DNA from: Candidatus Shapirobacteria bacterium
Lineage (GTDB): Bacteria > Patescibacteriota > Microgenomatia > UBA12405
Direction of reading: 5' to 3'
DNA length: 64,000 nt
Assembly (NCBI GenBank): GCA_022837635.1
Contig: JALHFY010000001.1
Location: 381,693 to 445,692 of the forward strand
A program made the position numbers and the translations under genes. Shown here piece after piece: positions 3,928 through 38,807 of the stretch (position 1 is its first letter; every line of letters begins with the position of its first letter). Under the pieces are notes generated by a model. The model was given only the letters and a program-made list of their open reading frames with translations. It did no database searches and was not told the DNA's origin.

Positions 3928-5256
3928 ATGAGGAAAAGAGAATTTCCGATTGAGGTGAGAAAAATAATGGAAAAAGTTTCCCAAAATAATGGGGAAATCT
4001 TTATTGTGGGAGGAGCGGTCAGAGATTGGCTTTTGAAAAGGGAAGTTAAAGATTGGGATTTTGCCACTAATTTAACTCCGGAAGAAATCAGAAAAATTTT
4101 TCCTAAAAACTCTTTTTATGAAAACGAGTTTGGAACAGTCAGTGTGGTCGGAGCCAAAAAAGATATTTATGAAATTACGACTTATCGCAGTGAAACAGAT
4201 TACGGCGATTTTCGCCATCCCCAAAAGGTAGTTTGGGGAAAAACGATTGAGGAAGACGTGAAAAGAAGAGATTTTACTATCAATGCCATGGCTATGGATA
4301 TTGACGGTCAAGTTTTAGATTTTCATCAAGGACAAGAGGACTTAAAAAACCAGTTAATAAAAACAGTTGGTAAGGCAGAAGAAAGATTTGAAGAAGATGC
4401 TCTGCGGATGATGAGGGCGATTAGAATTGCGTCTCAAATTGGTTTTTTAATTGAGGAAAAAACCTTTGAGGCGATTCAAAAAAAAGCACCCTTAATTAAC
4501 AAAATTGCCGGAGAAAGGATTCGTGACGAATTGTTCAAAATACTCTTGTCTAAAAAACCAGGAGATGGCATGAGACTGTTAAAAAACTCCGGATTATTGG
4601 CTCAAATTATGCCTGAACTTTTACCGGGGGTGGGGATGGCCCAAAAAGGTCATCATGTCTATGATGTTTGGGATCATGAGATTGAGGCCTTAAATAATTG
4701 TCAGAGCAAAAACCCGGTAACCAGGTTGGCGGTGTTATTGCATGATGTGGGTAAACCAAAAAGTTTGAAAATGATTAATGGCGAGAGAACTTTTCATAAC
4801 CATGAAGTAATAGGTTCCAGAATAGCGGTAAACATAGGTAAGAGACTAAAACTGTCAAAAAAAGAATTGGAACAATTGTTTATTTTGGTGCGATGGCATA
4901 TGTTTACCACCGAGGAAATGCAAACAGATAAAGCCATTCGTCGTTTTATTAGAAATGTCACTCCGGAATACTTGGAAGAAATGATAGCCCTGCGTAGAAG
5001 TGACAGATTGGGTAGTGGGGCCAAAGAAAGCAGTTGGCGTTGGGAATTGTTTAAGAAAAGATTAGTAGAAGTACAAAAACAACCTTTTACAGTTAAAGAT
5101 CTAAAAGTAGACGGCAATGATGTGATGACGATTTTGAAAATCAAACCAAGCCGACAAGTGGGAGAAATCTTGGATAAATTATTTGCCGAAGTTGAAGAAA
5201 ATCCGAAATTAAATAAAAGAGAATTGTTGCTGGAAAAAATAAAGGCGATGGGTTAG
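3928..5256 (+). CDS. cca: CCA-adding tRNA nucleotidyltransferase / poly(A) polymerase family protein with HD domain
   Basis: FIVGGAVRDWLL nucleotidyltransferase head, RDFTINAMA, and an HD motif LLHDVGK. The ORF-track start at 3850 overlaps the terminator, so the ATG at 3928 (MRKREF) or 3967 (MEKVSQ) is more likely. It matches the tRNA-Pro in the window, which has no encoded CCA. Confidence 0.75.
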   Translation: MRKREFPIEVRKIMEKVSQNNGEIFIVGGAVRDWLLKREVKDWDFATNLTPEEIRKIFPKNSFYENEFGTVSVVGAKKDIYEITTYRSETDYGDFRHPQKVVWGKTIEEDVKRRDFTINAMAMDIDGQVLDFHQGQEDLKNQLIKTVGKAEERFEEDALRMMRAIRIASQIGFLIEEKTFEAIQKKAPLINKIAGERIRDELFKILLSKKPGDGMRLLKNSGLLAQIMPELLPGVGMAQKGHHVYDVWDHEIEALNNCQSKNPVTRLAVLLHDVGKPKSLKMINGERTFHNHEVIGSRIAVNIGKRLKLSKKELEQLFILVRWHMFTTEEMQTDKAIRRFIRNVTPEYLEEMIALRRSDRLGSGAKESSWRWELFKKRLVEVQKQPFTVKDLKVDGNDVMTILKIKPSRQVGEILDKLFAEVEENPKLNKRELLLEKIKAMG

Positions 5257-10290: not shown

Positions 10291-10478
10291 CCAGGATAAG
10301 TTTAACAGAGAAGCAGTGTATACTGTAGTTATGGATAATAATGCTCATTATTTACGTAAAGATTTATTAAAGAGCTTTGTTTTAAGTCTGGTAGCTATTG
10401 CAATCCTTCTAGGATTGTATTATGTTTGGAAGTGAGTTAGCTTTAATTAGGTTTATTTAAAGGAGGTGAAAAGAAATT

Positions 10479-10655
10479 ATGGCTACTATTAAATTTTATT
10501 CTGTAAAATCCAGAAAATCCGTCGAGGTTGACGTTTCCAAAGTCAAAAAAGTCACCTTGAAAAACGGAAGACCGGCAGCTGAAGCTATTGATCCAGAAAC
10601 CGGTACTAAAATGTTCAAGATTTTATCCGCTGCTGATGCAGCTATGTTGAAATAA
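10479..10655 (+). CDS. Small (58 aa) basic protein, Sso7d/Sac7d (Sul7d)-like by sequence pattern
   Basis: ATG preceded by a strong RBS (aaaggaggtg, 8 nt upstream) and followed by a strong terminator. Translation: MATIKFYSVKSRKSVEVDVSKVKKVTLKNGRPAAEAIDPETGTKMFKILSAADAAMLK. Too short for the ORF track. Confidence 0.6.
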   Translation: MATIKFYSVKSRKSVEVDVSKVKKVTLKNGRPAAEAIDPETGTKMFKILSAADAAMLK

Positions 10656-10664
10656 GTATTGTTA

Positions 10665-10697
10665 AAAATCCCCCCGCACTATACGGGGGGATTTTTT
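10665..10697 (+). terminator. Rho-independent terminator
   Basis: aaaaatccccccgcactatacggggggatttttt: a 9-bp GC stem plus a T6 run. Confidence 0.7.
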
Positions 10698-10710
10698 GTG
10701 TTAAAATAGG

Positions 10711-11027
10711 GAACTTCAGAGAAGTTGAAGGACTGTATCTGGGTCGCCGTCGCGAAAGCTATGGTGTACCAAGGTAGGAAAGTCCGGACCACAAAAAGCA
10801 AGAAATCCCGAAGGGGACGGGGTGTGAACTCCGGGTAAGGCTACAGAGACGAGTAGGTCGCCTTCGTTCCGCGATTGCGGGACTACGGTGTACCGAGGTG
10901 AAACGAGCCTCCTTTCTGTGGAAATCTCAAGATGAGGCGCCTGTATCTAGCTTTTGAGAGCCTCAGGTGGAGAGAATAGATAGATAGTCCATAAACAGAA
11001 TCCGGCTTATCTACTTCTTTGAAGTCT
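10711..11027 (+). ncRNA. rnpB: RNase P RNA (bacterial type, reduced size)
   Basis: P4 strands taggaaagtccggac (5') and acagaatccggcttatc (3') match the universally conserved GGAAAGUCCGG and ACAGAAcCCGGCUUA blocks. A ggtgaaa block is present. The ends pair as P1 (acttcagagaagt with acttctttgaagt). Confidence 0.75.
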
Positions 11028-17428: not shown

Positions 17429-17701
17429 TTATTTAACCATCTTTTTGATTTTGGTGCCGGGAATATAACGAGGCATTCGGCGGGCCGCAATCTTTTTAAG
17501 TTCCTTGGAATTAATAGCTTTGATGGTTTTGGGTTTGAACATTTTGGTCTTAAAAGTACCAAAACCAGAGAGTTTGACATCTTCACCCGCAGCCAGGGCT
17601 TTCATAATTTCATTTAAGAAGGTTTCAACGGAAACCTTGGCAGCTTTCTTGGGAAGTTTAGCTTTACTAGCGACGACTTCAATGAGATCTTTTTTGGTCA
17701 T
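17429..17701 (-). CDS. hup: DNA-binding protein HU
   Basis: 90 aa; a GFGTF beta-arm motif and an HU/IHF-family N-terminal helix pair. Confidence 0.9.
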   Translation of the reverse strand: MTKKDLIEVVASKAKLPKKAAKVSVETFLNEIMKALAAGEDVKLSGFGTFKTKMFKPKTIKAINSKELKKIAARRMPRYIPGTKIKKMVK

Positions 17702-30341: not shown

Positions 30342-33300
30342 TTGAAAAATATATTCAAAAAACGAGTCTTTGACAAATTAGCGGCAATTTCCGCTGGTGT
30401 CTCGTTAATTCTCAACATCTTTTTGCCTTTATTAATAGTGATCCCTGTCCGGGCTGAAGAAATAGCAGCCTCTCCATCTGCGGAAGTAATAGAGGCTACT
30501 CCTACCCCTGAACCTACTGCCGCTCCAGAACTGACTCCCGCTCCCGAAGTTACTCCAACTCTAGAACCGTCATTAACTCCAACTGAAACTCCTGAAAATG
30601 CTGATGTTGGTGCTACTGAGGCAGCTGCTACTCCAACTGAAATTGAAGCTAAGCCTACGATTGCGAATGAGAAAAATGATGATAGTGATAAAGAAGAAGT
30701 TTCTCAAAAGTTCCGATCTACTCTTTTAAGTGCTTCTCAGTCAAGCAAGTCCGGTCAATACTCTATTTCTTCTACTAATGGTATTTGGACTAAGGTTGAG
30801 GGAACAAATAACTATGATGGTTTGAATACTGAGGAGATAAGATGGGGATCTGCCTCTTCAGGATCTTCTAGAAGTGGTTTAAGATTTGATGGTGTTGGTA
30901 CAACAACCAGTTTTAACGCCAATGAAAAGTTTTTAATAGGTGGTTTAACTCATTTTAATTGGCCTATATCGGGATCAGCAGCGAATAAAGCAACTCTAAA
31001 AATTACCCTAAATTTTTCAAATCCCTCTATTACGCCCTCGCCTACATTTACATATGATTTTGGTATTGAAGAAACAACCAATACTTACAATTTACAGGAT
31101 TGTAAATATTATGGTAAGCCTGAGCAACAAAGTCAGACTGCTTGCGATGACGTAATTACATTTCCTAATGGAGGTTATGGTGAAGAGGAATACACTATAG
31201 GGGATATGAAGTATACCCTAAAGATTGACGGTTTTCAAAATTCATATCCTGATGGTAAAACGGTTAGTAAGTTCATAACAGAAGAAAGAAAAAATAATGA
31301 GGCATTTTTAGTCGGCCATCTCAGTTCTGTCTTGGTTGAAAGCCCAAAAATCTCCATCATTAAAAAAGTGAATGGTTACGATGCAAATACTCCTGGAGAA
31401 GCAGTCCAAGTCACCGCAGGAGAAACAGTCAACTTTACATATATTGTTCAGAATACAGGTAATGTTAAATTAACAGGCATCTCAGTAACTGACAATAAAG
31501 GAGTTAATGTAAGTTGTCCTAAAACAGAATTAGATCCTGGCACGAGTATGACCTGTACTGGTAGTGCTAAAGCTATTGCGGGCAAATATACTAATATCGG
31601 TACAGTAAATACAACATCTCATCCATCAGTCACAGCTAGTGATCCTGCAAACTATGTCGGTCTTGTTCCTAAAATTAAAATTTGTCATAGAACCGCCTCA
31701 CATACAAGTCCTTATGAAGTAATTGAGCCTGATGCATCTGGAGATTTAAATGGTCATGTGGGACACACGGGGGATATTTGGTTCCCAGGTATAACAGTGG
31801 CATGGGGAGATATTATTAAACCGTTTACATATTACGAAAATGGGGAGCAAAAAGAATTTACAGGCCTCAATTGGAGTGAATATGGACAAGCGGTGTATAA
31901 CAATGACTGTAAAATTCCACAAGGTAAGATAATTATCAACAAAGTTTTAAGCCCAGCCTCTAACGACAACACAGAATTTACAATAGTAGGTAGTGGTACT
32001 CCTGCAATAACAGGTTCTCCTACTTTCTTGTATGAGAGTGGCAGTAATGTCGGAAGTATCAGTAGAAATAAATCTCATACATACAATGCCATGCCCGGTA
32101 CTTATAATATTGGAGAAACAGTTCCGGAAGGATGGAATCTAGTCAGTAATACGTGTTCAAATATCGAAATTGCGAATAACGAAACTAAAGAATGTACTAT
32201 TACTAACACACAAGATGGTTCATTAACTATTGTCAAGAAAGCATTACCATTTGGTATGGATTCATTTGGATTTACTCTGACAGGTAATGGAGTGAGTGAA
32301 CAATTCAGCTTAGTTGATAATTCAGGGACGGAAGATGCAAGCAAGACATTTAGTTTGAAAGCAGGGACATATGCAGTTGCGGAAGATAATTACGACGATT
32401 GGAAGACAACAGCTTCTTGTACAGGTGGACAGACAATAGATAATATTGTCCTAAACGCTGGCGATAGTGTAACTTGTACGTTTGCTAATACAAAATATGG
32501 GTCTATTTCAGGTCATAAATGGAATGATGCTAGTGGAAAAATAGAAGATCCAAATACAGATTTAACTCCAGTTTCTGGATGGACAATCATTCTGAAAGAT
32601 AAAAATGGAGCTGAGATTACTAGAACAACAACTGATGTAAATGGATACTATAAGTTTACCGGATTACTACCTGCAGACTACATAGTCACGGAGGGTTTGG
32701 AAGCTGGTTGGATAGTTTTGGCTGGTGATAGTAGAGATGTGGAGTTGAATGCTGGTAATAACGAGACTAATGTTGATTTCATTAATGTTAAATACGGTAG
32801 TATCAAAGTCTTAAAGAACGTTGATGTAGATGGGAACGGTCAGGTGGATACAGAAGGTGCTACAGATTGGGAATGGTTATTGGGAATGGATACAAAGGCG
32901 AGGATATATGCTACAGGAGAGACAGCTAAAAACTTATTGCCTGGAGTTTATAAAGTATCAGAAACACAGAAAAATGGCTATCATATAACGTCATTAGTAT
33001 GTACAAATAATGGTCAAGAGATTGTTAATGAGGCAAGTGAAAGTGTGAAAATTTCGTTAGAGTCGGGAGATAATGTTGTATGTACCTTTACCAATACCAG
33101 AGACACGGGTACATTAATTGTTAGAAAAGAAGTTGTTAATGATAATGGTGGTGCTCTGACAGCCAAGGACTTTTCATTTAAGATTGATACCGGTAAAGGG
33201 ATTGTTTTTGATCAAGATCCCACAAATCCTTTATTGGGTGAGAATACGTATAAGACTTTCCCAACTGGTACCTACACTATTACAGAACTAGAGGCAAATC

Positions 33301-36300
33301 AAAGAGGATATGCTACCTCATACAACAACTGTGACAAAGTAGAGGTTAAGAAAGGCGAAACAGCTGTTTGTACAATTACAAACAATGATAAAGCAGCAAA
33401 GCTAACTGTAATCAAGAAAGTCATTAATGATAATGGGGGAACAGCAAAAGTAAAAGATTTTGAAATTAAATTAAATGATAAAGACTTGGAATTTAAGTTA
33501 GATCAAGGAAGTGTAAGTAAATATATTTCTACTTATATTTCTACTCCAGAAGTCCAATCTAACACGGAGTATAAATTGACAGAAATTGATCATCCTGGTT
33601 ATAAGGAAGGAAAATGGAGTTGTAAGCCCAAAAAGGACGATGGAACTGGAGATGCAAGACCAGTACCCACCAAGGAAGGGCCGTCAACCTCTTTCACCTT
33701 ATCTCCAGGAAAGGAGATTGTTTGCACGATTACCAACGACGATATTGCCCCTTCGTTACAACTAATTAAGAAGGTCGTTAATGATAATGGTGGTACAGCA
33801 GTGGCAACCGATTGGAATCTAAAGGCAGAGGGTCTAACTCCAATTTCGGGAGATGGTAGTGCTATAAGTGGAAATAAATTCAAGGCTGGTGCATATACTT
33901 TGAGCGAAAATAGTGCTGTCACAGGATATAGTGCTAGTGATTGGAATTGTACAAATGGGATTGAGGTTGATGGCAACAACGGAATAACCCTGGGAATAGG
34001 TCAATCTACAGTCTGTACCATTACTAATGATGACGTGGCGCCAACTCTTAAACTAGTTAAGAATGTTGATAATGGCCATGGTGGTCCATCAAATGCAAAT
34101 GATTGGACATTAACTGCAAAATCAGAAACAGAAGAATTCAGTAATCTTGGTGATGCTGATACGACTCACACAGTTACGGCAGGAGTTGTCTATACATTGA
34201 GTGAGACAGGTCCAGAAAAATATGAAGCAGGAGAATGGGAGTGTACCAATAACATTGTGGTTGATAATAATAATGGAATAACTCTCGGATTGGGACAATC
34301 AACTGTTTGTACAATTACCAATACCTACTCACCTGGTTGTATTGAAGGTGAAGGTATTGGAGCTGATATAGTTGCTTCGGTTACACCAGGCACCAGATAT
34401 GACGGTAATCCTATTGTAAACTTGGGAAGTGAGGATAGAACAAAACCAGGAAATGCATTGGGTACAGCTGATGATAAATTCTACAGTTTGGGTAAAGATG
34501 GAGAGATTGAGCTGGAGTTTACCGGTTTCGTAGAAAATGTAGCCGGTAACGATTTCTCTATTCATGAGGTAACTTGGAATAGAGATAGCGACAAAGAAGA
34601 AAAGGCAGAAGTGTATGTTAAAAACAGCAATTCTGACTGGAAATATCTTGGAGAAGCCAGCAGTTTCAGTGATGGAAATAATGATGGAAAAAGAGATGGA
34701 ATCACACATTTTGATTTTGGAAACACAGGATTACCTTGGATAAATGCTATTAAACTGGTTGAGTCATCGGTGGGTCAGGATAATAACGATGACGGCTTTG
34801 ATTTGAATGCTATCGTGGCCGCCAGTCATGTTTGTAAAGAACCTTCTGTATCACAAGTAAAGATTTGTAAAGTGGATAATAAAAATAGACCATTGTCAGG
34901 CTGGGATGTGATGTTAAAAGAAAAAGTAGATGGTCCTAGTTTGATAAATGTATCCAACGATAGTGGGACTAATTCCTCTGATTTACTAGCAGGAAAATAC
35001 CTTATCAAAGTTAGTGGTACATATAGATATGGAAATTCTTCAATGAATGCTGACGCAGGCTTTTCGTACAGACCACAGGGAATACCCAGTGGTTGTGATT
35101 GTTGGTTAGATGGACACGAAATATCAGGAGGTTTAATGGCTCGGGTAAATGGAGAGGCAGTAAATTGGGGAGCTTATAATGATGGTCATGTTTACACATA
35201 TGTATATGATCATAATGGGGGAAAAATAAACATATCAATCCGGGACAATATATATATAGATAATGTAAATAATAATAATTTCCAGTTTGAAATTTTCAGA
35301 ATACCGGAAGGTTATTATGGTACTACTGGTAACGATGGGTGTGTTATCTTAAACAACGTCCTTTATGGAGATTACATTCTTGATGAAATCTTGAAAGAAG
35401 GATGGATTAATGTCTCTGGGAAAGGAAGTTCGGTGTCAGTAGATTCTTTAGAAGAAGTCTTTACATTAGTAAACAGAGAAGATGCTCCTGTAACCATAGT
35501 GGCGACCAAAATTGTCTGTAATAATGAAGCAGATTTGCCAAATTGGGGTTATGGAGCTCCTGATAATATAACCAAGGATACGGCTTCAAATTTCCTGGCT
35601 TCACGTCCCAATTGTCGTCGAGAATCTGGTTGGAGTTTCCAATGGGGAAATGATAGTTCAACTAACCCAGGAGATACGCACACAGGAGAAGCATCCGGTT
35701 GGCACACCTTTGGTCCGACTGGTTCTGACGGAGTTGCTACTGTCAATATTAACGACTTTGGCAACACTTCTCAAATTAAGGTGAGAGAGGTTTTGAAAGA
35801 AAATTATATTCCGTTTACATATTTAACCAACAAAAACAATTCCAACAATGTGTCTGCAGAAATCTATTGTCACACCGATGTTTTGAATTATGACAACGAT
35901 GATAGATTTATACCCGAATACGGAAATACCTATTATTGTGTTGCTTGGAACGTGGAAAAGAATCCATTGTTATCGATAGTGAAGAGTGGTGCTTTTGTTG
36001 ATGGAAATGCCAATGGTTTTGCAGATGTGGGAGAGACTATCAACTATAGCTTCACAGTTAAAAATGAAGGTAATGTCACTTTAACCAATGTGACTGTCAC
36101 CGATCCTAAAGTGACTGTGATTGGTGGTCCGATTACACTTAATGTGGGTCAAACTGATGCCACTACATTTACCGCTTCTTATGTGTTGACTCAGGATGAT
36201 GTTGACACTGGAAAAGTAGATAACACCGCTACTGCTGATTCAGACGAATCAGAACCAGCGTCAGATGATGAGACCGTCACTTTTAATACGAAAAAACCCA

Positions 36301-38807
36301 CATTGACTGTTGTCAAAAAAGTTGTCAATGATAACGGTGGAGATACCACTATCAATGATTTTGAGATTAAATTAAATGACGACTTAATCACATTTGAAGA
36401 CGGAGTTGTAGATGGTACCACGACTACATACACTTCTACTCCGACAGTATCTACAAAGACAGAATATACCTTATCAGAAAAAGACCTTGAAGGATACGAG
36501 GAAGGAGATTGGAGTTGTATAGATGATACAGAGGATAATATCGCCATGCCGTTTACTTTATCGGCAGGTCAAAATGTAACTTGTACTGTCACCAATGATG
36601 ATATCTTTGGTCAAATCTCGGTCATTAAATTTAACGACGTTAATGGCAATGGTCAAATGGATGCAGGTGAAGAAACCTTGCCAAATTGGCAAATAAATCT
36701 AACTTCTCAAGATTCAAAAGTGACGAATGACGAAGGTTCAGTGGTATTTGATAAATTAATTCCCCAAACTTACTATCTTAGTGAAACTCTTCAGCCTGGT
36801 TGGACTCAAACCTCTATCAACTGTGGACAAGATCAAGTTAGAATTACCGCTCCCGGTGAAGCCTATGGTCATCACGGGGTTTGTTCTGGTTGGAATGGTT
36901 GTGAAGACGCCGCCACTTGTGCCAAATGGGCTTGTGAGGCTAAAGGTTATCAAAATTTAGTTTCCTATGGTGAAGTCAAGGGTTGTACCAAGTTTAATAA
37001 GTGTAATTTATTCTGGTCTCGCAACAAGGTTGACTATAACTGGGATAATCATTGTGATGTTTTGGGAGTTACAGACATTGTCTGTAGTAATTCCAGTTCT
37101 ACTCCCAGCCTAACTCCAATGCCAACGACTCCAACTCAAGCACAAAATGATAATAACTATCAAATTGTTTTGGACAAATCTAAAACAGTTCAATGCTACA
37201 TTGGTAATCGTTATATCACTCCTAAAATAACTCTCTCTAAGAGTAACAATGTTGGTTTGACACCTCAAAAAGTTGGGAATGAAGTTGTTTATACTCTTAA
37301 ACTTAAAGTTACCGATAATTTTGTCAAAGATTTGTCAGTAATCGATTTACCGCCAACCGGTTTTGTCTATAAAGCTGGTAGTTATCAGGCCAAAGTTAAT
37401 GGTAGTCCTGTAGCTATTGCCGAACCACAGTATCACTCTCCTGGCCAATGGTTTTTAGGTGACTTAAATAAGGATGATGAAGTGGAATTAACTTATACCG
37501 CCACGATTCAAAACTCGGTGGATCCGGGAACTTATAAAGATGCCGCCTGGGCCTATGCTTGTCAAAGCAGTACTGATTGTCAAATTGATAGTAGTGATAG
37601 AGTTTTGGCTCAAGCCGTCAATCCTGGTTATCTAAATACCACCTTTGTTGGGACTCAAGTGAAATTAATTGCCGAGGCTCCAGCTCAAGAATATTCAGTA
37701 AATAGAGAAGAAATCAAAGAAGGAGAAGTTTTGGGAGCGACGACAGGTTTACCGGCCACCGGAGCTAGTAACGGATGGTTGTGGGTCATAGGTAGTTTAT
37801 TGACCAGCGGCATGGCTTTAGTATTTGCCGGGATTAAGAAAAATAAAATCATGGCAGTCATTCTGGCCCTATTTATGGTGACTCTTTTTATTCCTAAATA
37901 TACTTTAGCGGCTGATTCGGACTTATTCATTGCCTTGGAGAGTCCAGCCAGTCCTAATAACCAAAGTAAATTTAACCTAGCTTTTACAGCTTTGGATATG
38001 TTAAATCGACCCATAGTGGTCAAGTGTTTCAAAATCAATCCGGATAACAGTGAAGTGCAATTGGGAGGCAATATTAACTTGAAAGCCGGTGGTAACTCCG
38101 GTAATTGTAGTCTGGAGAGTTCACCTTTGAGTGAAAGCGGTAAAAATTACCGATTTTATGCAGTAGCTTCAAGTGGAGCTGATAGTTACAAAAGTGAAGT
38201 GGTTTCAGTGGATTACAATACTGATTTACCGGGAGTACCAACTGATTATTCTAAAGAAAAAGAAGGCAGTTGCCGCTTTAAGCTAAGCTTTAGAGCCAGT
38301 AATGACGGAAAAACTAAAGTTGTCAGAATCTATCGTTCAGAGCAAAATAAATTTAATGCCGATAGTCACACTCAAATTGGAGAGGTGGGTATTGATCCCG
38401 GTCAATGGGGTAGCTTTACCGATGTTAATGTTCCCGATTGTAACAAAACTTATTATTACGCCATTCGGGCTTTTGATGAGGCCAATAATGGCAGTGGTTT
38501 AGCCGGTGATTCAAACACAATCGTGACGACTGTTACTACTACCACTACTACTACTGTCAATGACAGTAATATTACTGACACTACTGGGGCAATCAGAGTT
38601 GCAGATAGTAATATTCCTGGCGAAGAAGAGATAGCTAATGCCGAGGAAAGTGCCGGTGAGGAAAGTGAGACAAGTGGAGAAGGTAGTGTTTTGGGAACCA
38701 CTGAGGAAGTAGGTAAAAACAATAAAATAAAGTTGCTTCTAGTAGGGGCTCTGATATTAATCGCTATAATTGTCTATGTCAGTCGCCGTTCCCGCCGTCA
38801 AAAATAA
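30342..38807 (+). CDS. Giant secreted cell-surface protein (about 2,821 aa), likely an adhesin
   Basis: TTG start and signal peptide (IVIPVRA/EE). A P/T/E-rich linker, at least 3 DUF11-like repeats, at least 3 Cna-B/SdrD-B-like modules, 5 repeats carrying V(V/I)NDNGG, and a Cys-rich module. LPATG plus hydrophobic segment plus KKNK at aa 2470-2502, then an in-frame signal peptide, FN3-like domain, Thr-rich stalk and C-terminal TM-RRSRRQK. Confidence 0.8.
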   Translation: MKNIFKKRVFDKLAAISAGVSLILNIFLPLLIVIPVRAEEIAASPSAEVIEATPTPEPTAAPELTPAPEVTPTLEPSLTPTETPENADVGATEAAATPTEIEAKPTIANEKNDDSDKEEVSQKFRSTLLSASQSSKSGQYSISSTNGIWTKVEGTNNYDGLNTEEIRWGSASSGSSRSGLRFDGVGTTTSFNANEKFLIGGLTHFNWPISGSAANKATLKITLNFSNPSITPSPTFTYDFGIEETTNTYNLQDCKYYGKPEQQSQTACDDVITFPNGGYGEEEYTIGDMKYTLKIDGFQNSYPDGKTVSKFITEERKNNEAFLVGHLSSVLVESPKISIIKKVNGYDANTPGEAVQVTAGETVNFTYIVQNTGNVKLTGISVTDNKGVNVSCPKTELDPGTSMTCTGSAKAIAGKYTNIGTVNTTSHPSVTASDPANYVGLVPKIKICHRTASHTSPYEVIEPDASGDLNGHVGHTGDIWFPGITVAWGDIIKPFTYYENGEQKEFTGLNWSEYGQAVYNNDCKIPQGKIIINKVLSPASNDNTEFTIVGSGTPAITGSPTFLYESGSNVGSISRNKSHTYNAMPGTYNIGETVPEGWNLVSNTCSNIEIANNETKECTITNTQDGSLTIVKKALPFGMDSFGFTLTGNGVSEQFSLVDNSGTEDASKTFSLKAGTYAVAEDNYDDWKTTASCTGGQTIDNIVLNAGDSVTCTFANTKYGSISGHKWNDASGKIEDPNTDLTPVSGWTIILKDKNGAEITRTTTDVNGYYKFTGLLPADYIVTEGLEAGWIVLAGDSRDVELNAGNNETNVDFINVKYGSIKVLKNVDVDGNGQVDTEGATDWEWLLGMDTKARIYATGETAKNLLPGVYKVSETQKNGYHITSLVCTNNGQEIVNEASESVKISLESGDNVVCTFTNTRDTGTLIVRKEVVNDNGGALTAKDFSFKIDTGKGIVFDQDPTNPLLGENTYKTFPTGTYTITELEANQRGYATSYNNCDKVEVKKGETAVCTITNNDKAAKLTVIKKVINDNGGTAKVKDFEIKLNDKDLEFKLDQGSVSKYISTYISTPEVQSNTEYKLTEIDHPGYKEGKWSCKPKKDDGTGDARPVPTKEGPSTSFTLSPGKEIVCTITNDDIAPSLQLIKKVVNDNGGTAVATDWNLKAEGLTPISGDGSAISGNKFKAGAYTLSENSAVTGYSASDWNCTNGIEVDGNNGITLGIGQSTVCTITNDDVAPTLKLVKNVDNGHGGPSNANDWTLTAKSETEEFSNLGDADTTHTVTAGVVYTLSETGPEKYEAGEWECTNNIVVDNNNGITLGLGQSTVCTITNTYSPGCIEGEGIGADIVASVTPGTRYDGNPIVNLGSEDRTKPGNALGTADDKFYSLGKDGEIELEFTGFVENVAGNDFSIHEVTWNRDSDKEEKAEVYVKNSNSDWKYLGEASSFSDGNNDGKRDGITHFDFGNTGLPWINAIKLVESSVGQDNNDDGFDLNAIVAASHVCKEPSVSQVKICKVDNKNRPLSGWDVMLKEKVDGPSLINVSNDSGTNSSDLLAGKYLIKVSGTYRYGNSSMNADAGFSYRPQGIPSGCDCWLDGHEISGGLMARVNGEAVNWGAYNDGHVYTYVYDHNGGKINISIRDNIYIDNVNNNNFQFEIFRIPEGYYGTTGNDGCVILNNVLYGDYILDEILKEGWINVSGKGSSVSVDSLEEVFTLVNREDAPVTIVATKIVCNNEADLPNWGYGAPDNITKDTASNFLASRPNCRRESGWSFQWGNDSSTNPGDTHTGEASGWHTFGPTGSDGVATVNINDFGNTSQIKVREVLKENYIPFTYLTNKNNSNNVSAEIYCHTDVLNYDNDDRFIPEYGNTYYCVAWNVEKNPLLSIVKSGAFVDGNANGFADVGETINYSFTVKNEGNVTLTNVTVTDPKVTVIGGPITLNVGQTDATTFTASYVLTQDDVDTGKVDNTATADSDESEPASDDETVTFNTKKPTLTVVKKVVNDNGGDTTINDFEIKLNDDLITFEDGVVDGTTTTYTSTPTVSTKTEYTLSEKDLEGYEEGDWSCIDDTEDNIAMPFTLSAGQNVTCTVTNDDIFGQISVIKFNDVNGNGQMDAGEETLPNWQINLTSQDSKVTNDEGSVVFDKLIPQTYYLSETLQPGWTQTSINCGQDQVRITAPGEAYGHHGVCSGWNGCEDAATCAKWACEAKGYQNLVSYGEVKGCTKFNKCNLFWSRNKVDYNWDNHCDVLGVTDIVCSNSSSTPSLTPMPTTPTQAQNDNNYQIVLDKSKTVQCYIGNRYITPKITLSKSNNVGLTPQKVGNEVVYTLKLKVTDNFVKDLSVIDLPPTGFVYKAGSYQAKVNGSPVAIAEPQYHSPGQWFLGDLNKDDEVELTYTATIQNSVDPGTYKDAAWAYACQSSTDCQIDSSDRVLAQAVNPGYLNTTFVGTQVKLIAEAPAQEYSVNREEIKEGEVLGATTGLPATGASNGWLWVIGSLLTSGMALVFAGIKKNKIMAVILALFMVTLFIPKYTLAADSDLFIALESPASPNNQSKFNLAFTALDMLNRPIVVKCFKINPDNSEVQLGGNINLKAGGNSGNCSLESSPLSESGKNYRFYAVASSGADSYKSEVVSVDYNTDLPGVPTDYSKEKEGSCRFKLSFRASNDGKTKVVRIYRSEQNKFNADSHTQIGEVGIDPGQWGSFTDVNVPDCNKTYYYAIRAFDEANNGSGLAGDSNTIVTTVTTTTTTTVNDSNITDTTGAIRVADSNIPGEEEIANAEESAGEESETSGEGSVLGTTEEVGKNNKIKLLLVGALILIAIIVYVSRRSRRQK
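37851..38807 (+). CDS. Possible separate gene: a signal-peptide / FN3-like / Thr-rich / C-terminal TM-anchored protein, in-frame with the giant ORF and with no stop between them
   Basis: The ATG at 37851 immediately follows the LPATG-TM-KKNK sorting signal. MAVILALFMVTLFIPKYTLAADSD is a canonical signal peptide. KTYYYAIRAFDEANNGSG is an FN3-like motif. A C-terminal TM plus RRSRRQK follows. Confidence 0.3.
   Translation: MAVILALFMVTLFIPKYTLAADSDLFIALESPASPNNQSKFNLAFTALDMLNRPIVVKCFKINPDNSEVQLGGNINLKAGGNSGNCSLESSPLSESGKNYRFYAVASSGADSYKSEVVSVDYNTDLPGVPTDYSKEKEGSCRFKLSFRASNDGKTKVVRIYRSEQNKFNADSHTQIGEVGIDPGQWGSFTDVNVPDCNKTYYYAIRAFDEANNGSGLAGDSNTIVTTVTTTTTTTVNDSNITDTTGAIRVADSNIPGEEEIANAEESAGEESETSGEGSVLGTTEEVGKNNKIKLLLVGALILIAIIVYVSRRSRRQK

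Follow-up and report, generated by a model that had tools for sequence, protein, structure and literature searches.

An unannotated, cysteine-less offshoot of the DUF5679 zinc ribbons with a predicted barrel-like fold in Candidatus Shapirobacteria

A 58-codon gene beside rnpB

In a 64,000-nucleotide stretch of the genome of a Candidatus Shapirobacteria bacterium (assembly GCA_022837635.1, contig JALHFY010000001.1, positions 381,693 to 445,692; hereafter, the window), a gene of 58 codons lies directly upstream of rnpB, and its product is annotated merely as a hypothetical protein (Table 1). A first-pass annotation of the window had likened this product to Sul7d, the family of Sso7d and Sac7d, and had raised the possibility of gene exchange with archaea. 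Among the chromatin proteins of archaea, Cren7 and Sul7d are textbook examples, and Sso7d in addition serves widely as a scaffold in protein engineering. Here, we describe the window protein as an unannotated, cysteine-less, barrel-like offshoot of the DUF5679 zinc ribbons, and we propose that it represents a bacterial parallel to the origin of Cren7 and Sul7. The earlier reading is thus supported in part, namely in its fold and in the kind of function that is likely, but not in its assignment of family and origin.

The translation of the open reading frame (ORF) was reproduced exactly (58 amino acids [aa] plus stop), and the product has 12 Lys/Arg residues versus 6 Asp/Glu residues, as counted from the sequence (net charge, +6). 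The gene had been credited with the strongest ribosome-binding site of the window, and its Shine-Dalgarno (SD) sequence is indeed the longest before any candidate start codon, with the runner-up matching over 8 nucleotides (nt). SD matches of 8 to 11 nt are retained in most related loci. The intrinsic terminator proposed downstream is also borne out (fold, −21.1 kcal/mol; z = −3.7; 0 of 200 shuffles as stable). A simple pattern scan for terminators did not detect this hairpin because its T-run lies partly within the stem. The gene is monocistronic with its own terminator, and from the SD and terminator signals we infer that the protein is highly expressed.

The gene is real, and selection on it is strongly purifying: when it was compared pairwise with 80 related loci, the first, second, and third codon positions differed 604, 256, and 2033 times, respectively. 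The median identity of the protein to its orthologs is 88%, whereas five flanking genes reach 49 to 63% and YchF reaches 78%. The two neighbors noted before are confirmed: the RNase P RNA begins 65 nt downstream on the same strand, and a gene for HU is present farther along the window.

Table 1. Features of the 58-codon gene and of its surroundings in the window
Feature	Positions	Strand	Basis or remark
39-aa ORF	10316-10435	+	Directly upstream of the 58-aa gene
Shine-Dalgarno sequence AAAGGAGGTGA	10459-10469	+	11-nt match to the canonical sequence; 9-nt spacer to ATG
Coding sequence of the 58-aa basic protein (cysteine-less DUF5679 zinc-ribbon family member)	10479-10655	+	Translation, profiles, conservation, model
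Former first zinc knuckle S8-V-K-S11 (CxxC in canonical members), β1/β2 turn	10500-10511	+	Alignments A1 and A2; ligand-column census
K28-N-G-R-P-A33 hairpin, β3/β4	10560-10577	+	Best-conserved motif of the superfamily, with or without Cys; proposed ligand contact
Former second zinc knuckle D38-P-E-T41-G-T (CPxCGT in canonical members), β4/β5 turn	10590-10607	+	CPDCGT in four-cysteine orthologs
C-terminal amphipathic helix, residues 51-56 (AADAAM), predicted	10629-10646	+	DSSP on the model; absent from the P0225 model
Intrinsic terminator	10664-10696	+	13-bp G+C-rich stem, 7-nt loop, then T-tract
Extended −10-like box TGtTAAAAT	10699-10707	+	Seen by eye; 3′ edge of the terminator T-tract, ~12 nt before rnpB
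rnpB (RNase P RNA)	10720-11018	+	Rfam RF00373, 95.4 bits
HU gene	17429-17701		
Largest ORF of the window (2,821 aa)	30342-38807	+	

Membership in DUF5679 and loss of the zinc ligands

A first search with the 58-mer returned 110 close relatives, all of them hypothetical proteins of Woesebacteria, Shapirobacteria, and other Patescibacteria. Against profile libraries, the 58-mer alone had only two weak matches, to Pfam DUF5679 and to NCBIfam Sul7d. The DUF5679 match (PF18930; 14.7 bits, E = 0.034; gathering threshold, 27) extends over the whole model (positions 1 to 40 of 40). Because this score is sub-threshold, membership in DUF5679 relies on evidence from profiles and from orthology. We used three alignments: A1, the narrow family of the window protein (38 sequences); A2, the broad DUF5679 family; and A3, 30 canonical members with four cysteines. 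The A1 profile recovered 636 cluster representatives at E ≤ 0.001 among 1.84 billion. Its distant matches are of the type YCVKCRKKVEMKDAKxVTMKNGRPAxQGVCPxCGTKMFRIGK, with the four cysteines exactly at positions 8, 11, 38, and 41 of the window protein. Profile matches were obtained at E = 1e−12 to 1e−6, and five tested ones (four canonical and one with the ligand pattern CECC) clear the Pfam DUF5679 threshold with 42 to 63 bits. Aligned with each other, the A1 and A3 profiles match over all 58 columns (hhalign, 99.6% probability, E = 1.5e−23). A word-indexed search with the broad alignment recovered at least 7,982 proteins, and among these are four-cysteine proteins of Patescibacteria. Such orthologs (example, MATITFYCVKCRASKTVDKKDTEKTTLKNGRPAAKAVCPDCGTGMFKILSAKDAAED), which are flagged by PF18930, are 61 to 65% identical to the window protein, and this range holds for P0259-P0264 and for the genes in loci L078 and L079.

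DUF5679 is a 40-residue zinc-ribbon domain found in bacteria, giant viruses, and polintovirus-like elements, and its core, Y-x-x-K ... K-N-G-R-P-A ... G-T-K-x-F, is present in the window protein, which has Y7, the KNGRPA hairpin, and the strand GTKMFKI in common with the family. Residues Y7 and G30 are invariant and N29 is nearly so in A2, while N29, G30, R31, A33, and G42 are invariant in A1. Unlike DUF5679, the window protein has all four ligands replaced, an N-terminal strand extension, and a C-terminal helix. By these profile comparisons, the true family of the window protein is the DUF5679 zinc ribbon, which is common in bacteria. Sequence and profile searches across the solved structures of the PDB, among them ribosomes, found no chain that fits the family profile, and a comparison with PHROGs gave nothing meaningful. 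Matches to the coiled coil of a hantavirus nucleoprotein (2k48, E = 0.006), to segments of PCNA, and to light-harvesting proteins that share only the string KNGRLA were rejected as short and belonging to unrelated folds.

The four zinc-chelating cysteines of DUF5679 are absent from the window protein, which has S8, S11, D38, and T41 instead. To count cysteines at the four ligand columns, we took a census of 298 proteins (297 family members and the window protein). Four cysteines were found in 98 proteins, three in 36 (mostly CECC), two in 6, one in 7, and none in 150. The ligand patterns CCDT, CTCT, CSDT, and CTDT are among the intermediates, several of which belong to the window protein's own subfamily. 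Relatives P0107, P0081, and P0089 retain C8 and/or C11, and a few members of A1 have a cysteine at position 8, 11, or 38. The sequence DPETGT in place of the second knuckle is the core of chignolin (GYDPETGTWG), a designed mini-hairpin that folds autonomously, as would be expected of a turn that has become independent of metal.

The four-cysteine and the cysteine-less forms occupy one genomic slot. Around the window gene, the order is DUF3048, DUF4446, the 58-codon gene, rnpB, an AI-2E transporter, miaA, and ychF, with HU and RNase Y beyond. The genes of four-cysteine proteins P0259 and P0270, and the four-cysteine genes in loci L078 and L079, stand in the identical order in sister Microgenomates, and HU and RNase Y follow in those four-cysteine loci that extend far enough. 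The shared order indicates that the window gene is the ortholog of the zinc-ribbon gene and that no insertion took place. Judged from gene order and alignment, the four-cysteine orthologs in the same locus show that the window gene derives vertically from a bacterial zinc ribbon. At their N termini, these Patescibacteria orthologs already have the strand MATI(K/T)F, and at their C termini the sequence FKILSA-DAA; the canonical member P0225, with 46 aa, has neither. The elements that could contribute packing therefore seem to be older than the loss of the metal site.

Some loci in our collection depart from this picture in their context or in their labels. Two contigs of a metagenome-assembled genome of Longilinea sp. 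(L045, 2803 to 3000; L046, 4001 to 4174) carry a cysteine-less copy, MPTIKFYSVVKRQSVEIDVSKVELVTMKNGRPAAQALDPETGTKLFKILGAADKALIEQAK, which is 72% identical to the window protein. The context of these copies is of Chloroflexi type, next to ComM/YifB Mg-chelatase-like and zinc-ribbon proteins and without rnpB nearby, and the name of contig L046 states a G+C content of 0.584. The copies may reflect horizontal transfer between Patescibacteria and Chloroflexi. Many of the contigs L001 to L080 that contain the full Microgenomates block bear implausible organism labels ("Candidatus Methanoperedens" for L047 and "uncultured Gammaproteobacteria" for many), which look like mis-binning or placeholders. 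Contig L016, labeled "Bacillota," lacks the synteny block entirely.

Predicted fold and its likeness to Cren7 and Sul7d

An AlphaFold2 model built on the family alignment (pLDDT, the predicted local distance difference test score, of 88.1) has strands at residues 3-8, 13-18, 23-26, 32-37, and 44-48 and a helix at residues 51-56 (DSSP). In the model and in A2, the ligand-equivalent residues 8/11 and 38/41 are at the ends of strand pairs 3-8/13-18 and 32-37/44-48, respectively. An SH3-like barrel with a C-terminal helix had been expected in the first-pass annotation, and the predicted arrangement of a β1-β2 hairpin, a three-stranded sheet, and a helix agrees with it. The top Foldseek match in the PDB is Cren7 (6a2i_A; E = 0.054, probability 0.99, template modeling [TM] score 0.57), and Sac7d/Sso7d structures 1xyi_A, 1bf4_A, and 1bnz_A are also matched (probability 0.94 to 0.98, TM score 0.55 to 0.56, E = 0.08 to 0.14, 29 to 32% identity). 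The best matches in this search have E values of 0.05 to 0.15 and TM scores of 0.55 to 0.60, and none has E < 0.001. Because the model is a barrel plus helix and its nearest solved structures are Cren7, Sac7d, and Sso7d, the fold envisaged earlier stands as a prediction. The model of the canonical four-cysteine member P0225 (pLDDT, 87.6) has five strands and no helix, and it matches Cren7 and zinc ribbons alike (Pol I A12.2, RNase P Rpp21, and NrdR; E = 0.7 to 4). Among predicted viral structures, the best matches are uncharacterized giant-virus proteins and phage zinc ribbons (TM score 0.65 to 0.73, E = 0.004 to 0.02).

A likeness to both zinc ribbons and barrels has a precedent. SH3-like barrels have a topology similar to that of type-2 zinc ribbons, and Cren7 and Sul7 originated from a type-2 zinc ribbon that lost chelation and gained hydrophobic packing (Kaur, Iyer, Subramanian, and Aravind 2018; PMC5906684). 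According to the same study, the β1/β2 and β4/β5 turns of Cren7 are the former knuckles, the β3-β5 sheet is the nucleic-acid interface in zinc ribbons and in Cren7/Sul7 both, and Cren7/Sul7 are confined to Crenarchaeota and Bathyarchaeota (PMC5906684). Cren7 (PF11520; PDB 3KXT and 6A2I), a pan-crenarchaeal chromatin protein, is the best structural match of the window protein (probability 0.99, TM score 0.57 to 0.60). Like Cren7, the window protein is a zinc-ribbon derivative by these comparisons, and its former knuckles are at the β1/β2 and β4/β5 turns. The two proteins also share a DPETG turn at β4/β5, and the K-G-R loop of Cren7 corresponds to K-N-G-R in the window protein at β3/β4. Unlike the window protein, Cren7 has a long, flexible β3-β4 loop with the intercalating residues L28 and W26, lacks a C-terminal helix, and is archaeal rather than bacterial.

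In profile comparisons, an alignment of 34 Cren7 sequences from metagenomes, which include CPKCG...CPNGH forms, gave no detectable relationship to A1 (hhalign, 3.6%), A2 (0.1%), or A3 (0.2%). The control comparison of Cren7 with Sul7d reached merely 0.9%, which indicates that hhalign has little power on homology of this depth. The Cren7 sequence used here proved exact when checked. Hot-spring metagenome contigs L134 to L138 (match, 301 to 420) encode Cren7 relatives of the form MPKCPKCGAEV...FKCPNGHYFRAKVE, which keep a CPxCG first knuckle and a Cys/His second knuckle, like the cysteine-retaining Cren7 forms described previously (PMC5906684).

The resemblance to Sul7d has a different character. 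Sul7d, Sso7d, and Sac7d have the same size as the window protein and are likewise basic, their secondary-structure elements follow one another as in the window protein down to the C-terminal helix, and they can be superimposed on it (TM score 0.55 to 0.58, 29 to 32% identity). The Sso7d sequence given in the first-pass comparison is exact, and of the motifs then listed as shared, those at the N terminus hold, with 14 of 25 residues identical (BLASTP, residues 1 to 25 only). The other listed motifs were not recovered by any alignment tool. Sul7d is the sole NCBIfam match of the window protein and matches 10 of 38 family members (best E = 0.013). The match of the window protein itself is again limited to residues 1 to 25 and is far from the family cut-off (NF045555, 12.2 bits versus 100, E = 0.13), and no match of PF02294 to the 58-mer was reported at E up to 10. 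The A1 profile aligns with the single Sso7d sequence at 61.6% over 37 columns, and with a 27-sequence Sul7d profile at 40.6% over 24 N-terminal columns. With A2, the probabilities are 0.4% for Sso7d and 0.6% for the Sul7d family (12 and 13 columns). Since the signal shrinks as both families are more fully represented, it points to a local resemblance specific to one subfamily, rather than to common ancestry.

The residues with which Sul7d contacts DNA lead to the same view. In the Sul7d alignment (27 sequences), W24 and V26 are invariant and M29 is nearly invariant. In the hhalign register, W24 is aligned with T26 of the window protein, and by our own count, the region of V26 and M29 corresponds to L27-K28-N29-G30-R31-P32, with neither an aromatic residue nor a Val/Met pair. 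A search with Sso7d retrieved 79 proteins, all belonging to PF02294 (Sulfolobales-type proteins, engineered Sso7d derivatives, and a few contaminant-labeled entries). No member of the window family is among them, and searches with the window family likewise recovered no Sul7d.

A true Sul7d homolog, acquired horizontally from Sulfolobales-type archaea, would account for the N-terminal identity with Sso7d, for Sul7d being the only NCBIfam match of the window protein and a match of 10 of the 38 family members, for the 61.6% alignment with A1, and for the presence of Sac7d and Sso7d among the leading fold matches. It does not fit a likeness that is limited to the first hairpin and that fades with the broadened DUF5679 profile, a score so far below the family cut-off, the outcome of the reciprocal search, or the full-length match to DUF5679 at 99.6%. 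Moreover, W24, V26, and F32, invariant in Sul7d, are not conserved in the window family, and the four-cysteine orthologs at the same locus indicate vertical descent from a bacterial zinc ribbon. We therefore consider Sul7d homology extremely improbable and largely refuted, and the suggested exchange with archaea finds no support in either the Sso7d search or the four-cysteine orthologs. The window protein is outside Sul7d, which is restricted to Sulfolobales, by every profile test, lacks the W24, V26, and M29 residues of that family, and appears to descend from a bacterial zinc ribbon and not from Cren7. The most fitting interpretation of its similarity to Sul7d is that the two converged once the zinc site had been lost. 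We propose that the window protein repeats, in a bacterial family, a transition of the Cren7/Sul7 type, which would explain why it gives the impression of Sul7d when the sequence alone is considered.

A proposed nucleic-acid binder and its alternatives

The transition may have proceeded as follows. The ancestral slot would have held a four-cysteine DUF5679 protein, as is still the case in sister Microgenomates. In the clade of the window protein, the ligands were replaced (C8 by S or N, C11 by S, C38 by D, and C41 by T), and the second knuckle changed from CPDCGT to DPETGT, a self-folding turn. Hydrophobic packing from the N-terminal strand extension and the C-terminal helix would take the place of the metal, and the outcome would be a 7-kDa protein similar to Cren7 and Sul7d, with a barrel of five strands and a helix. 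Such a protein could bind nucleic acid, either DNA or structured RNA, via its β3-β4-β5 sheet and the invariant K-N-G-R-P-A hairpin, as do type-2 zinc ribbons, Cren7, and Sul7d. In the model, the KNGRPA hairpin sits where Sul7d and Cren7 insert side chains into DNA.

Some DUF5679 domains (P0137, P0218, and P0220, and also P0149 and P0154) are fused to long tails rich in Lys, Arg, and Ser that resemble protamines or serine/arginine-type proteins, with up to 58% Lys plus Arg. Their probable sources are mobile elements or the DNA viruses of eukaryotes. DUF5679 has been listed only as an unknown domain that is frequent in polintoviruses and mavirus-like elements (PMC11131425, PMC13215967), and the literature that we searched contains no characterized member. 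Given that the window protein is basic and highly conserved, has strong expression signals, and belongs to a family with Lys/Arg/Ser-tailed relatives and an occurrence in DNA viruses, we infer that it is abundant and binds nucleic acid (DNA or RNA). A role as an abundant small nucleic-acid binder is plausible. Taken together, we think it likely that the window protein is a cysteine-less descendant of the DUF5679 type-2 zinc ribbons with a barrel plus helix like that of Cren7 and Sul7d, and that it acts as an abundant nucleic-acid binder through the KNGRPA hairpin.

Several observations weigh against this conclusion. The score of the window protein is under the Pfam DUF5679 cut-off. The aromatic and intercalating residues of Sul7d (W24, V26, and M29) have no equivalent, and strand β4 (PAAEAI) consists of small residues. 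High expression is a prediction from signals in the sequence. Finally, our searches found neither a solved structure nor a tested function for any DUF5679 protein, so that nucleic-acid binding is likewise a prediction.

Basic charge, small size, extreme conservation, a strong SD sequence, and a monocistronic gene are also typical traits of ribosomal proteins. The window protein could instead be a structural or adaptor protein with a protein or ribosome partner, for example, a lineage-specific ribosome-associated protein comparable to the C+/C− zinc-ribbon ribosomal proteins. It is well known that bacterial ribosomal proteins have lost the cysteines of their zinc ribbons repeatedly, as Makarova and colleagues reportedly described in 2001. 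In L31, L33, L36, S14, and S18, the CxxC ligands have been lost repeatedly while the function was kept. The window family likewise is a small, basic zinc ribbon with repeated loss of CxxC ligands. Unlike the C+/C− pairs, it includes no known ribosomal protein, and the loss is accompanied by added secondary structure that leads to a barrel-like domain. The gene is outside the ribosomal protein clusters of the window, no chain of a solved ribosome fits the family profile, and the members from eukaryotic DNA viruses and mobile elements, with their protamine-like tails, are a better fit to DNA binding. We regard a ribosomal or adaptor role as improbable.

The location of the gene raises a further alternative, namely that the protein is an RNase P protein cofactor or an RNA chaperone specific to rnpB, similar to Rpp21, the zinc-ribbon subunit of archaeal RNase P. 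In 77 of 80 related loci, rnpB follows the gene immediately and on the same strand, and it also neighbors the four-cysteine orthologs. The RNase P RNA of this lineage is unusually small and passes only the archaeal Rfam model RF00373 (84 to 120 bits; gathering score, 84). Besides the copy in the window, matches to this model were found in L001 (4241 to 4481), L078 (4192 to 4451), L083 (4227 to 4434), and L081 (4206 to 4486), with short lengths of ~210 to 300 nt. The genome is otherwise bacterial, with HU, miaA, and RNase Y in the window and SecDF in related loci. The zinc ribbon of Rpp21 (6k0a_G, 2zae, and 1x0t; E = 0.8 to 2) is among the top matches of the canonical DUF5679 model, and type-2 zinc ribbons of the Rpp21 type contact RNA via the same sheet (PMC5906684).

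These matches to Rpp21, however, reflect generic zinc-ribbon similarity with poor E values, and the window protein lacks the two-helix domain that precedes the zinc ribbon in Rpp21. Seven of eight tested neighbor genes, the exception being the 39-aa ORF, are syntenic in 59 to 74 of the 80 related loci, and the adjacency to rnpB is therefore a trait of the lineage and no independent evidence of a link. For this reason, and because family members outside Microgenomates are not accompanied by rnpB, we rejected adjacency as functional evidence. No rnpB was found near the DUF5679 genes in Chloroflexi or near the cysteine-less copies in L016 and L045. The ORF and rnpB are separated by a strong terminator, and the extended −10-like box at the edge of its T-tract suggests transcription of rnpB from a promoter of its own, separately from the ORF. 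A literature search linking RNase P RNA and Patescibacteria found nothing. We keep the RNase P alternative, as a highly improbable one, because rnpB scores only with the archaeal model and because Rpp21 is a type-2 zinc ribbon. In Chloroflexi loci L087 to L090 (~4145 to 4445), the DUF5679 gene is followed by a gap of ~300 nt without a called gene in three of the four loci, as in the window, and in L090, a 57-aa ORF is called in its place. The region had no Rfam match at the gathering score in L087, L088, and L090.

Two other ORFs of the window deserve mention. The 39-aa ORF (MYTVVMDNNAHYLRKDLLKSFVLSLVAIAILLGLYYVWK) upstream of the 58-aa gene encodes a hydrophobic C-terminal helix and was found by tblastn in 19 of the 80 related loci (42 to 81% identity). 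It has no Pfam match and may be the gene for a small membrane protein. The largest ORF of the window is listed in Table 1.

The descent of the 58-codon gene from a DUF5679 zinc ribbon has consequences beyond this locus. So far, archaea alone have provided a described case in which proteins such as Cren7 and Sul7d originated from zinc ribbons that ceased to bind metal, and this locus would be a bacterial replay of it. Because four-cysteine, partly decayed, and cysteine-less orthologs are found in one genomic slot, the route from a metal-stabilized ribbon to a self-stabilized barrel is directly testable with natural intermediates. A broader reading, which we offer tentatively and consider rather unlikely, is that DUF5679, and especially its cysteine-less clade, is the bacterial and viral counterpart of Cren7/Sul7, that is, an abundant 7-kDa architectural DNA binder acting alongside HU, which arose either by an independent transition or from a shared, ancient type-2 zinc-ribbon ancestor. 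If this reading is true, the locus preserves every step of the transition (4, 3, 2, 1, and 0 cysteines) among positional orthologs. For DUF5679, a large family of at least 7,982 recovered sequences from bacteria, giant viruses, and polintovirus-like elements, nucleic-acid binding via the KNGRPA hairpin is the first functional hypothesis. For the poorly understood bacteria of the candidate phyla radiation, the gene flags a candidate for an abundant chromatin or RNA-binding protein.

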